Source: Escherichia coli (GTDB taxonomy: Bacteria > Pseudomonadota > Gammaproteobacteria > Enterobacterales > Enterobacteriaceae). From it: 64,000 nt of DNA. Position numbers and translations under genes: made by a program. The notes beneath the pieces were generated by a model. The model saw only the letters and a list, made by a program, of their open reading frames with translations, searched no databases and was not told the origin of the DNA. The first letter of the stretch is position 1. Every line of letters starts with the position of its first letter. The stretch is from NCBI RefSeq assembly GCF_044324875.1, contig NZ_CP172185.1, one strand, 5' to 3'. Of this stretch, positions 2,608 through 20,582 are shown in pieces.

Positions 2608-3123
2608 ATGCCGTTGTTAGATAGCTTCACAGTCGATCATACCCGGATGGAAGCGCCTGCAGTTCGGGTGGCGAAAACAATGAACACCCCGCATGGCGAC
2701 GCAATCACCGTGTTCGATCTGCGCTTCTGCGTGCCGAACAAAGAAGTGATGCCAGAAAGAGGGATCCATACCCTGGAGCACCTGTTTGCTGGTTTTATGC
2801 GTAACCATCTTAACGGTAATGGTGTAGAGATTATCGATATCTCGCCAATGGGCTGCCGCACCGGTTTTTATATGAGTCTGATTGGTACGCCAGATGAGCA
2901 GCGTGTTGCTGATGCCTGGAAAGCGGCAATGGAAGACGTGCTGAAAGTGCAGGATCAGAATCAGATCCCGGAACTGAACGTCTACCAGTGTGGCACTTAC
3001 CAGATGCACTCGTTGCAGGAAGCGCAGGATATTGCGCGTAGCATTCTGGAACGTGACGTGCGCATCAACAGCAACGAAGAGCTGGCGCTGCCGAAAGAGA
3101 AGTTGCAGGAACTGCACATTTAG
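2608..3123 (+). CDS. luxS: S-ribosylhomocysteine lyase (autoinducer-2 synthase)
   Basis: 171-aa ORF with the HTLEH metal-binding motif and GCRTGFY; recognised as LuxS. Confidence 0.97.
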
Positions 3124-16889: not shown

Positions 16890-17074
16890 GATTCGTATTT
16901 CCGTTTAAAATGAAGATACGGCGCGATGATACGCGTCGGGTTGTCTCTCTGTTGATACAGAGATACTAGATGTAGTTGAAAAAAGATTCAACCACACAAT
17001 ATATAGCAAATAGTGGTCGAAATTACCCTGGGTATGAGCGTGACGGGGTAGGGGGATTTTTGTGATTCACCAGG

Positions 17075-17105
17075 CAAAAAGAAACCCCGAAGCCAGGCTT
17101 CGGGG
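17075..17105 (-). terminator. Intrinsic terminator downstream of ygaM
   Basis: CCCCGAAGCC..GGCTTCGGGG hairpin followed on the minus strand by TTTCTTTTTG. Confidence 0.5.
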
Positions 17106-17136
17106 TCAAAGACGCGTATTTATTATCATTATTGCA

Positions 17137-17466
17137 CTACGATTTGCGCATGCTTAACAGTGCGCCGATAAAAATACCTACCGCAGCTGCTGTACCCACG
17201 CTACACCAGGGTCTTTCACGAACAAAAGAATCCGCGCAGCCAACGGCATCGCGTGCGACTTGCTGGACGCGAGTACGACCATGCATTCGCGCCCTGGTTT
17301 CTTTCAGTAGAGCCTGCGCTTTACTGCGTGCGGCTTCAGCTTCCCCTTTGGCGTCGCTGCCCCAGGACTTCAACACAGACTCGAGGCTGTCAGCTAATTG
17401 ATTGACATCATTCTGGATATCCTGCACGCCATCATCAACGTCGTTGCGGTTCGGTCGGTTAAACAT
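17137..17466 (-). CDS. ygaM: ElaB/YqjD-family membrane-anchored ribosome-associated protein
   Basis: ORF 17137..17478; start set at MFNRPNRNDVDDGVQ (109 aa); C-terminal TM anchor. Confidence 0.85.
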   Translation of the reverse strand: MFNRPNRNDVDDGVQDIQNDVNQLADSLESVLKSWGSDAKGEAEAARSKAQALLKETRARMHGRTRVQQVARDAVGCADSFVRERPWCSVGTAAAVGIFIGALLSMRKS

Positions 17467-17617
17467 ATGATCCCCCATTAGAATTCGATGTAATTTTCAG
17501 TGTAGACCATAATTTTCTTAACTGAGGTTCATCGCGGCTTTATGGACTTTTCTGAAAGCGTTGTGAATGCGCAATCAGGTAAGGTAGGCCCGCGGTTGAT
17601 AATAACGAGGATCAAAT

Positions 17618-17962
17618 ATGTATTTACGACCAGACGAGGTGGCGCGCGTACTTGAAAAAGTCGGTTTTACTGTCGATGTGGTAACCCAGAAAGCGTATGG
17701 TTACCGCCGTGGGGAAAATTATGTCTATGTTAATCGTGAAGCACGAATGGGACGTACCGCCCTGGTAATTCATCCAACATTAAAAGAACGTAGTTCGACA
17801 CTGGCTGAACCCGCTTCCGATATTAAAACTTGCGATCATTACCAGCAATTTCCGCTCTATTTAGCGGGTGAACGTCATGAGCATTACGGTATCCCGCATG
17901 GCTTTAGTTCGCGTGTTGCGCTTGAACGTTATTTGAATGGTTTATTTGGCGAAGCCAGTTAA
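17618..17962 (+). CDS. ygaC: Uncharacterized protein YgaC
   Basis: 114-aa ORF in the conserved position between ygaM and alaE. Confidence 0.8.
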
Positions 17963-17998
17963 AGACGCGACTGGCGATGCCAGTCGCGAAAAGAAGGG

Positions 17999-18448
17999 TC
18001 AGGCTTTTACCTGCTGGTAACGGCTGACTTTAAACAGTCGGCGGCAATAATCGAGGAAGTAGCCATAAACCGCCCCCATCAACATCGAAACAACGATGTT
18101 TGAACTGACCGCCGCCATAATCTGATGCCAGTCTGCGCCCACCACTAACAAGATCGCCACATACACCGGTGACTGGAACGTCACATAAGCCATGATATCC
18201 GCCAGATTTTTTATCCAGCCCGACGGGCTAACTTTGCGTGCTGCGCGCATAAACAGATCGCGGTACATACCGTATGGCCATGCAATTAAGATGTTCACCG
18301 GAATCGCTACCAATCTGGAATAAAAAGATTGTTCGAAGCTCATTCCGGAGAGGAAAACTTCAATACACATGTTCACGACAGAACAGTAAACAACCATCGC
18401 GAACGTATCTGCAACTGCATGACGCAAGCGTGACTGCGGTGAGAACAT
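17999..18448 (-). CDS. alaE: L-alanine exporter
   Basis: 149-aa ORF with four hydrophobic segments; recognised as AlaE (YgaW). Confidence 0.88.
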
Positions 18449-19115
18449 GCTAATGCTCCTTAATAAAGGCGTAATGGGATGTTAATGGAGATGAAAGCAG
18501 TGGATCTCATTGCCATCTGCATTTTCGCATAGCGTATATCGCTGGCCATGACTAATCAATTAGTGAAAAATTTTTATTTAGTCAGTTTTTGTAGATAAAA
18601 TATTCCGTAACGGCGCGTTTTTTGTACATTGTGGATTTTTACATGCCGATATGATTTATTTTTAATTAAATCAATTAGATATGGGCTTACCTTTAATTTC
18701 ACTAATGAAAGTTTGGGGGTGAGGTAACGCTATAAGCGTAGAGAATTCGGTGTATGTCGTGACCGGGTCATTTTCAGCATTTTTTATGCCAGACAATGTA
18801 CATTAACAGCAGAAAGCACCAGTGAGGGACGTTTTCTTTTATTCAGTTTAATTGCATTTTTATTCTCTTTGGTTTTGTCGGGCTTGCGGAATTAGCGAGC
18901 AGAGAGCGCCGCTCTGCTCACCAATAACCTAAATTACTCATCAAAATGGCTAATATATAATCTTGAAATTATTCTGAGAGTTTCAGAAAATAACAGCTGA
19001 AATAATCTCGTGCAGGACTGTAAATAGATTAAATTTTGTGGAAATATAATAAGTGATCGCTTACACTACGCGACGAAATACTTTTTTGTTTTGGCGTTAA
19101 AAGGTTTTCTTTATT

Positions 19116-19520
19116 ATGTCCGTAATGTTACAAAGTTTAAATAACATTCGCACTCTCCGTGCGATGGCTCGCGAATTCTCCATTGACGTTCTTGAAGAAA
19201 TGCTCGAAAAATTCAGGGTTGTCACTAAAGAAAGACGTGAAGAAGAAGAACAGCAGCAGCGTGAACTGGCTGAGCGTCAGGAAAAAATTAGCACCTGGCT
19301 GGAGCTGATGAAAGCTGACGGAATTAACCCGGAAGAGTTATTGGGTAATAGCTCTGCTGCTGCACCACGCGCTGGTAAAAAACGCCAGCCGCGTCCGGCG
19401 AAATATAAATTCACTGATGTTAACGGTGAAACTAAAACCTGGACCGGTCAGGGCCGTACACCGAAGCCAATCGCTCAGGCGCTGGCAGAAGGTAAATCTC
19501 TCGACGATTTCCTGATCTAA
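19116..19520 (+). CDS. stpA: H-NS paralogue StpA
   Basis: 134-aa [36 protein letters not shown]... with the C-terminal [12 protein letters not shown]-binding motif. Confidence 0.95.
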
Positions 19521-19566
19521 TTACTGAGGCCGGATGCCGCCGCTATGGCGCGTCCGGCGTCGCTTC

Positions 19567-20091
19567 TCAAGCTCGTTGGTTCCAAGGCATCTTATCTAAC
19601 AACCTTGCCATCCCACAAAAACCGCTAATTCCTGCAAACAGTAACCCGGCACCAACAAAGCCGCTTAATAAGAAGAAACCGCTATTTACGGTATAACCTA
19701 GTATAACTCCGATTAATATTAAACCACCCGCAGCGATCTGCACCTGGCGCATTAACGGCAAGGGTTGAGATTTATTTACCGCTACTGGTAATCCTGCTTT
19801 TTTCCAGCCATCAATCCCATCTTCGAGTAAAAAGATTTCTGCGGGGGCGGCAATCGCTGCTAATTTATCGGCGTTATTACTGGTGCGTTTACCTGCCTGG
19901 CAGTGGAATATAATTTGCTCGCGACGTAATTTAGCCGGAAGACCTGACTGTTCCAGCACGGATAATGGAGCCAGATCTGCTTCAGGAATATGTTCACGAA
20001 GATATTCATCAGCGTCACGAATATCGATTAACTTTGCGCCGCGTGCGATTAATTCTTGTGCATCATGCGGCGAAATGGTTGTCAAAGCCAT
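19567..20091 (-). CDS. ygaP: Rhodanese-domain inner membrane sulfurtransferase
   Basis: 174-aa ORF with a rhodanese active-site Cys loop (CQAGKRT) and two C-terminal TM helices. Confidence 0.88.
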
Positions 20092-20100
20092 AGTGACTCC

Positions 20101-20400
20101 TTACGGACAATAGACATTTTTCAGGGTGGCGATAATGGCATTTACCGCCTCATTTTTAATGGAATATAGAATGCGTTGGGCATCCCGTTGGCTGTCGATA
20201 AGCCCTTCGTCCCGCATACGAGCGAGATGCTGTGATGTCGCAGAGGCACTCAGTCCGGTAATGCGCGTCAGCTCTCCCGCGCTGGTGCCGGGGGAACCGC
20301 TAAGCATGCACAGAATCAGCAACCGTTTAGGGTGGCTCATTGCTTTCAATAAGGCCGCTGCCTGTTCGGCACTGGCCTGTAATTGCGCGAGTTCAGTCAT
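20101..20400 (-). CDS. ygaV: ArsR-family transcriptional regulator
   Basis: 99-aa ORF with an ArsR/SmtB HTH; upstream of and co-oriented with ygaP. Confidence 0.88.
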   Translation of the reverse strand: MTELAQLQASAEQAAALLKAMSHPKRLLILCMLSGSPGTSAGELTRITGLSASATSQHLARMRDEGLIDSQRDAQRILYSIKNEAVNAIIATLKNVYCP

Positions 20401-20582
20401 ATTTATTTAAGTATTTTCTAAATTAAGCAAACTCTAAACTAAAAATGCAACATATACCAGCCTCAGCAGCGTAAATGAGAGTAAAAGCGTAAGCTGAAAC
20501 TGGCAGGCTCCGCTAAAATTACTACGCTTAAGAGATAAAATCTCTTTTTAAACAATGAGTAATTTTCTTATAGGGAGTACAT

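Follow-up and report, generated by a model that had tools for sequence, protein, structure and literature searches.

The closest described counterpart of the DNA analysed here is the stpA-alaE (ygaW) region of Escherichia coli K-12, which is the same locus with identical flanking genes and carries published Lrp, H-NS, RNA polymerase, sigma70, sigmaS and sigma54 occupancy. A double Lrp ChIP-seq peak was reported at stpA-alaE, with one peak in the spacer and the other in ygaP (PMC10127797). Under Lrp, alaE was slightly repressed in minimal medium and strongly activated with leucine, isoleucine and valine, stpA was activated, and loss of the ygaP site, more than 1 kb off, lowered stpA activation more than 5-fold; bridging of the stpA-alaE fragment by Lrp was observed by AFM and was abolished by leucine (PMC10127797). 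Induction of alaE by L-alanine and L-leucine is also Lrp-dependent (PMC6801825), and stpA depends on Lrp in minimal medium and is subject to H-NS silencing (PMC4668568). A promoter table marks the spacer as bound by H-NS and gives RpoD promoters for both sides (PMC3946193), the spacer is covered by ChIP-chip regions of RNA polymerase, sigma70 and sigma54 (PMC3923258), and a sigmaS ChIP peak (U00096.2 2797100-2797249) spans the alaE promoter and the alaE start (PMC4447067). According to this literature, Lrp is the best-documented regulator of the spacer.

The window (the whole stretch of E. coli DNA that was analysed, 64 kb) contains this locus in the gene order of E. coli K-12 (ygaM, ygaC, alaE, stpA, ygaP and ygaV). 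The initial annotation had described a 667-bp, AT-rich, ORF-free gap between divergent alaE and stpA, and the ORF boundaries give exactly this length and these coordinates (Table 1). Both flanking genes were confirmed by protein identity against the RefSeq proteins of the closest genome. The K-12 equivalent is NC_000913.3 2798496-2799163 (668 bp). The spacer was found as a single copy in 5419 of 5426 complete E. coli genomes, and no annotated feature lies in it, either in the MG1655 record or in the 5419 RefSeq E. coli genomes. The window carries a minority allele, as at least 99% identity was observed in only 9 of the 5419 genomes. It is 96.9% identical to K-12 with 21 differences, which are clustered in 18750-18880; the differences in the variable centre include one arm of a GC-rich inverted repeat. 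The spacer is thus the already known shared control region of alaE and stpA. The one addition made here is a sigma54 element, although this had already been catalogued as a weak sigma54 ChIP-seq peak.

When GC content was compared, the spacer (35.4%) was clearly separated from its flanks (45-57%). Among 634 tiles (667 bp each) of the 64-kb window, 4.1% are equally AT-rich, and most of them belong to a separate island at 30.7-33.5 kb. With 21 runs of four or more A or T, the spacer has the highest number of all tiles (tile mean 7.5). Mononucleotide shuffles of the spacer contained 9.9 +/- 2.8 such tracts and reached 21 in 0 of 1000 cases; the A/T tracts therefore exceed compositional expectation about twofold. 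Helical phasing of AA/TT was marginal and was reached by about 5% of shuffles. The longest ORF in the spacer encodes 42 aa. The spacer ranks second in length among ~40 intergenic gaps in the 40-kb annotated neighbourhood, so it had fairly been called unusually long.

In its 35% GC, doubled A/T tracts, H-NS flag (PMC3946193) and H-NS silencing of stpA (PMC4668568), the spacer resembles H-NS/StpA-silenced AT-rich promoter regions. Unlike horizontally acquired H-NS-silenced islands, it is core-genome DNA whose position is conserved across Enterobacteriaceae, and unlike H-NS targets with a high-affinity motif, it lacks TCGATAAATT at up to 1 mismatch; nor was this motif enriched over shuffles.

Conservation of the two promoter sides

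When AlaE was used to scan one genome per species, 80 loci were obtained, and stpA was found divergently upstream of alaE in 59 of them (enterobacterial species). In all 59 species the spacer is 475-789 bp long with 31-43% GC, and its alignment consists of three zones, namely the alaE side, the centre and the stpA side. The alaE-proximal ~240 bp (18449-18690) align essentially gap-free over all genera with runs of invariant columns, and the stpA-proximal ~90 bp (19029-19115) comprise a conserved promoter and leader. In the 19 species without stpA beside alaE, the alaE -10 block and the first upstream block (18559) are retained at the same spacing. It is thus alaE, and not stpA, to which the deeply conserved half belongs.

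The initial annotation had assigned the region to stpA as upstream DNA under H-NS control. Its regulatory role holds, and H-NS silencing and an H-NS site are published (PMC4668568, PMC3946193); the description was incomplete, as the deep conservation is mostly on the alaE side and the best-documented regulator is Lrp.

Table 1. Coordinates of features in and around the alaE/stpA spacer (positions in the window)
Feature	Position	Strand	Remarks
alaE CDS (L-alanine exporter), left flank	17999-18448	-	ORF of 149 aa; 100% identical to WP_000492658.1 AlaE
Whole alaE/stpA spacer	18449-19115		667 bp; 35.4% GC; 21 A/T tracts
alaE 5' leader, ~76 nt	18449-18524	-	Shine-Dalgarno AAGGAG at its end; predicted from promoter position
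alaE sigma70-type core promoter	-35 TTGATT 18554-18559; 17-nt spacer; -10 TACGCT 18531-18536	-	Predicted; conserved in 59 species
Conserved alaE upstream array	18559-18690; blocks at 18559, 18589, 18619 (30-bp steps) and 18666		Gap-free in 59 species; proposed Lrp-binding region
Fast-evolving AT-rich central spacer, ~320 bp	18700-19020		Indels between genera; short islands found in Escherichia only
sigma54 -24/-12 element CTGGCATAAAAAATGCTG	18775-18792 (K-12 2798820-2798837)	- (toward alaE)	Pattern match and published ChIP
GC-rich inverted repeat, core GAGCAGAG-N7-CTCTGCTC at 18897-18919	18891-18925		Arms 18891-18904 and 18912-18925
stpA upstream zone	18925-19030	+	Proposed Lrp (activator) and H-NS binding zone, from Lrp/H-NS reports
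stpA promoter, motif TGGAAATATAAT	19039-19050	+	-10 TATAAT 19045-19050; conserved in Escherichia, Salmonella, Citrobacter and Klebsiella
stpA 5' leader, ~60 nt	19057-19115	+	Predicted; invariant in Escherichia
stpA CDS, right flank	19116-19520	+	ORF of 134 aa; 100% identical to WP_000115383.1 StpA

Both the motif and the spacing of the alaE core promoter are kept across genera, and transcription is predicted to start near 18524. The resulting leader folded no better than shuffles (z = -1.25). Upstream of the promoter, the distance of the array blocks to the alaE ATG is constant in nearly every species, and we propose that these blocks form the Lrp-binding region. A spacing of 30 bp is typical of cooperative Lrp arrays. 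The alaE blocks recur at exact 30-bp steps and free of indels in ~75 species (for those without adjacent stpA, this concerns the -10 and the first block), a geometry that would fit cooperative Lrp binding. This likeness to Lrp-controlled promoters with phased multi-site arrays (the ilvIH, pap, dadAX and oppA type) extends to the two-peak Lrp occupancy. Unlike in the ilvIH/pap-type arrays, the Lrp SELEX consensus YAGHAWATTWTDCTR was not enriched in the spacer over composition-matched Markov shuffles, and the individual Lrp sites here are putative. Because neither the Lrp nor the H-NS motif is enriched, the assignment of the blocks to Lrp is based on the published ChIP data and not on sequence.

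On the stpA side, no acceptable -35 was found for the promoter; the poor -35 would fit an activator-dependent promoter. Folding of the stpA leader was unremarkable (z = -1.06 vs shuffles). The upstream zone is almost fully invariant in nine E. coli strains and one sister clade and has diverged in other genera. Both the alaE and the stpA promoter scored below the threshold of a generic consensus scan. We also analyzed a candidate for a second stpA promoter (TTGAAA-17-GAAAAT, 18963-18991, + strand), which was rejected as its key bases are not kept in other Escherichia species.

Taken with the published data, the spacer is very probably a purely regulatory divergent-promoter region without a gene of its own, built of two control modules and a fast-evolving AT-rich linker. 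The anatomy, the conservation and the absence of gene-like signals come from the present analysis and the occupancy and regulatory effects from the literature, and the exact starts and the pairing of blocks with proteins are predictions. The alaE module (18449 to ~18690) would consist of the leader of ~76 nt, a weak sigma70/sigmaS promoter and the rigidly spaced A/T-rich blocks upstream. Lrp oligomers bound to these blocks may exert a slight repression of alaE in minimal medium and a strong activation once alanine or leucine is plentiful. The stpA module (~18925 to 19115) would combine a perfect -10 and no -35 with the leader of ~60 nt, and without a -35 the promoter is proposed to need activation. 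Lrp bound at this module may bridge to the second Lrp site in ygaP, more than 1 kb away, and thereby activate stpA, and H-NS together with StpA may coat the A-tract-rich DNA and cause silencing. The central ~320 bp would then serve as AT-rich filler that holds the promoters apart and extends the nucleoprotein platform. Since the central sequence would be free to drift, it could gather lineage-specific features such as the weak sigma54 site and the GC-rich inverted repeat.

The centre of the spacer and its lineage-specific features

When the centre was compared with non-Escherichia species, identity per 10-bp bin was 3-43% (median about 0.2) with gaps of up to 85%. Islands conserved only within Escherichia (I1-I6) were located at 18734-18750, 18773-18788, 18807-18816, 18853-18865, 18944-18963 and 18983-19009, and several of the centre islands are invariant across Escherichia species. 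Within E. coli, 4685 of 5419 genomes show a divergence of 5-10% from the window over the 86 bp at 18860-18945 (sensitive blastn). Insertions into the spacer are tolerated: Citrobacter amalonaticus carries an additional ~129 bp, and one E. coli strain an IS1.

The GC-rich inverted repeat folds on the minus strand with z = -2.97 vs shuffles. Its right arm and loop vary between the nine E. coli strains compared, and the repeat is absent in other Escherichia species. A role as terminator was ruled out as there is no T-run on either strand. It is not a REP, ERIC or MITE element either, occurring in one place per genome in 5419 genomes and having no second copy within the 64-kb window when up to 3 mismatches are allowed. 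The repeat lies ~145 bp upstream of the predicted sigma54 start, which is a typical enhancer distance. However, as it is polymorphic within E. coli, it is probably not an enhancer-binding-protein site for the sigma54 element. It is regarded as a drifting lineage-specific feature without an assigned role.

The sigma54 element was found by pattern search as TGGCATAAAAAATGCT at 18776-18791 (- strand), with GG and GC canonically spaced; this match, TGGCAT-N5-ATGCT, has 2 mismatches to TGGCACN5TTGCW. The pattern alone is at chance level (305 matches in the window vs 329 in shuffles). The predicted start lies near 18765, which leaves about 317 nt to the alaE ATG. An identical 18-mer appears among the low-stringency sigma54 ChIP-seq peaks, where it is classed 'outside gene, sense' and assigned to alaE downstream (PMC4591121 S2 Table, Bonocora et al. 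2015), and the sigma54 ChIP-chip region SigN_161 covers the element (PMC3923258). It is one of 149 low-stringency motif-containing peaks and in this respect resembles the inactive sigma54 sites of Bonocora et al. 2015; in contrast to the conserved subset of that study, the site does not extend beyond the E. coli lineage. Its occurrence is limited to E. coli and one sister clade, together with a weakened form in E. whittamii; 55 other species do not have it. E. albertii and two further Escherichia species have lost the -24 GG, and the element is missing from every other genus. Of nine sampled E. coli, eight have the element intact and one has GT in place of the GG. When the upstream DNA was compared with known activator sites, no enhancer-binding-protein site was recognised. 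For NtrC only a single half-site was seen (TGGTGCT, ~18816-18822, - strand), which at ~30 nt from the -24 is too close to the promoter.

Alternative readings of the spacer

The initial annotation had left room for an additional small transcript, and the length of the spacer and the stable GC hairpin would be in line with an independent small regulatory RNA encoded in the centre, as would the one sigma70-like + strand match upstream of stpA (18963-18991). We consider such an RNA very improbable. When 17000-20500 was searched against Rfam at E-values up to 1, only two sub-threshold chance matches were returned, and at the gathering threshold there were zero matches in 12 related loci. No hairpin followed by a T-run was present in the spacer on either strand, and promoter-like sites in a consensus scan were not more frequent than in shuffles. 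No Term-seq 3' end was mapped in MG1655 between 2798243 (within stpA) and 2800533 in LB at OD 0.4, LB at OD 2.0 or M63, and no Rho termination region at 2798400-2799299 in the same three conditions (PMC7815308). Literature searches for an sRNA in the alaE/stpA spacer returned nothing relevant, and no RNA is annotated there in MG1655. The GC hairpin itself is polymorphic within E. coli and missing in sister species, and within the spacer conservation is lowest in the centre. The additional transcript therefore finds no support in Rfam, terminators, conserved ORFs, Term-seq 3' ends or annotation. Of the two sub-threshold Rfam matches, cow-rumen-1 fell on the GC hairpin and anti-hemB coincided with a terminator that lies beyond the spacer. 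A small protein or leader peptide is extremely improbable. One candidate is a 29-aa ORF (18460-18549, - strand) which ends inside the alaE Shine-Dalgarno, so that its stop codon abuts the ribosome-binding site, and three Escherichia species have a deletion of 6 nt, an in-frame length. Its ATG, however, lies in the promoter spacer, upstream of the predicted start and thus outside the predicted transcript, and is ATA in K-12. The ORF is intact in 0 of 59 species, and the six spacer ORFs that reach 20 aa are each preserved intact in 0-2 of 59, in agreement with the original ORF-free description. In addition, the conservation runs on the alaE side are contiguous and not three-periodic, and no small protein is annotated in MG1655. 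As a leader peptide for alaE, the 29-aa ORF is effectively refuted. The main effect of these checks is to strike the spacer from the candidates for a hidden gene.

Since binding of sigma54 holoenzyme within the spacer is published, a third start is physically possible. If the element were a working activator-dependent promoter, it would, under some condition, produce either an alaE mRNA whose long leader (~317 nt) spans the Lrp array or an independent non-coding RNA. We regard this as improbable. The element does have the canonical GG/GC, is directed at alaE and is retained intact by eight of the nine E. coli sampled. A sigma54 promoter is known for astC. The 18-mer resembles the ChIP-seq peak upstream of astC in the same S2 Table, and sigma54 occupancy in vivo was seen in two independent datasets (PMC3923258, PMC4591121). 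However, the peak is of low stringency, many such sites are called non-functional by the authors, and alaE appears in the S2 Table only and is missing from the table of genes regulated by sigma54 overexpression (PMC4591121). The -24/-12 is also not conserved outside the E. coli lineage, the sole upstream palindrome is polymorphic within E. coli with no enhancer-binding-protein site recognised, and no Term-seq 3' end lies downstream. The evidence leans against an active site. It is decidedly improbable that the centre of the E. coli lineage recently gained a sigma54 promoter (18775-18792, - strand) that transcribes through the Lrp array into alaE when enhancer-activated. If true, such a promoter would be a second, nitrogen- or stress-linked input to alanine export, or alternatively its activity would dislodge Lrp and H-NS from the common control DNA through transcriptional interference. 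A further reading takes the central ~320 bp as functionless, that is, as neutral AT-rich DNA between compact promoter modules whose constantly large size is a historical accident. We consider this unlikely, although it deserves some weight, as the centre diverges rapidly with frequent indels and spacer lengths of 475-789 bp, is a polymorphism hot spot within E. coli and has accepted the Citrobacter amalonaticus and IS1 insertions. Against it, none of the 59 species has a spacer shorter than 475 bp, which suggests a lower length bound. Several islands are invariant across Escherichia, 18925-19030 is nearly invariant in E. coli, and Lrp bridging over more than 1 kb was reported to matter for stpA (PMC10127797).

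For the purely regulatory spacer with two control modules, the floor of 475 bp suggests a minimum length requirement for an Lrp/H-NS nucleoprotein complex. The alaE-side array, being free of indels and arranged in 30-bp steps, would lend itself well to mapping the docking of Lrp oligomers.

Sigma54-type elements and short motifs around the alaE-stpA spacer

The spacer between the divergent genes alaE and stpA carries a sigma54 -24/-12 element whose sequence is exactly that of a low-stringency sigma54 peak published from ChIP-seq (PMC4591121). Its occurrence is limited to the E. coli lineage, and no activator site was recognisable for it. When coordinates were converted, the second sigma54-type match corresponded by position to the published ChIP-seq site "IA21 ygaP" (PMC4591121). 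A distal Lrp peak activating stpA has also been reported within ygaP (PMC10127797).

Two kinds of short sequence were repeated in the spacer, an exact 10-mer and T-rich motifs (TTTTTATTyAG..), the latter shared by the alaE array (the conserved blocks upstream of alaE) and the variable centre. Both 10-mer copies lie within conserved blocks, one of them overlapping the alaE -35, and these 10-mers and T-rich motifs may represent repeated protein-binding half-sites. The GC-rich inverted repeat is present in a single copy. It is perfect (8 bp) in the allele of the window, polymorphic among other E. coli and missing from sister species.

Features in and around the spacer
Feature	Window position	Strand	Context
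Strong hairpin CCCCGAAGCC..GGCTTCGGGG	about 17077-17168		between ygaM and nrdH
10-mer AATCAATTAG	18554-18563; 18669-18678		copies 115 bp apart
T-rich motifs, alaE array	18570-18592
T-rich motifs, centre	18832-18849; 18856-18878
Sigma54 -24/-12 element CTGGCATAAAAAATGCTG	18775-18792	-	oriented toward alaE
GC-rich inverted repeat	18891-18925		surroundings AT-rich
Second sigma54-type match TGGAATATAATTTGCT	19904-19919	+	within ygaP, antisense
Lowest GC of the window	30700-33500		about 30% GC

Insertions on the alaE side in other genomes

In Citrobacter amalonaticus, a GC-rich insertion of about 129 bp (locus L011, about 2870-3000) separates the alaE promoter blocks from the Shine-Dalgarno sequence, so that every upstream block is displaced by 129 bp. 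The end of this insertion (..CCTGAAGTATAACGAGTATA) appears to resemble the ERIC/IRU repeat. In E. coli QL57EC, an IS1 insertion (locus L091, 748-1445) has removed alaE's 5' part together with the half of the spacer nearest to that gene, and only the sequence equivalent to window 18775-19115 remains of the spacer.

Low-GC stretch and 3' ends

The lowest-GC stretch surrounds a tRNA-Ile gene and a frameshifted DUF5507 gene, and looks like a horizontally acquired island. The ileY-ygaQ spacer is listed as H-NS-bound in a table that also includes stpA-alaE (PMC3946193).

The ygaM-nrdH hairpin gave a sub-threshold Rfam match to "anti-hemB". It corresponds to "orphan" Term-seq 3' ends on both strands of K-12 (2800533 + and 2800553 -; PMC7815308) and looks like a bidirectional terminator. 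For stpA, K-12 Term-seq recorded an ORF-internal 3' end at 2798243 (minus strand) besides the primary terminator at 2798048 (PMC7815308); the internal end falls at about 19369 (+) in the window.
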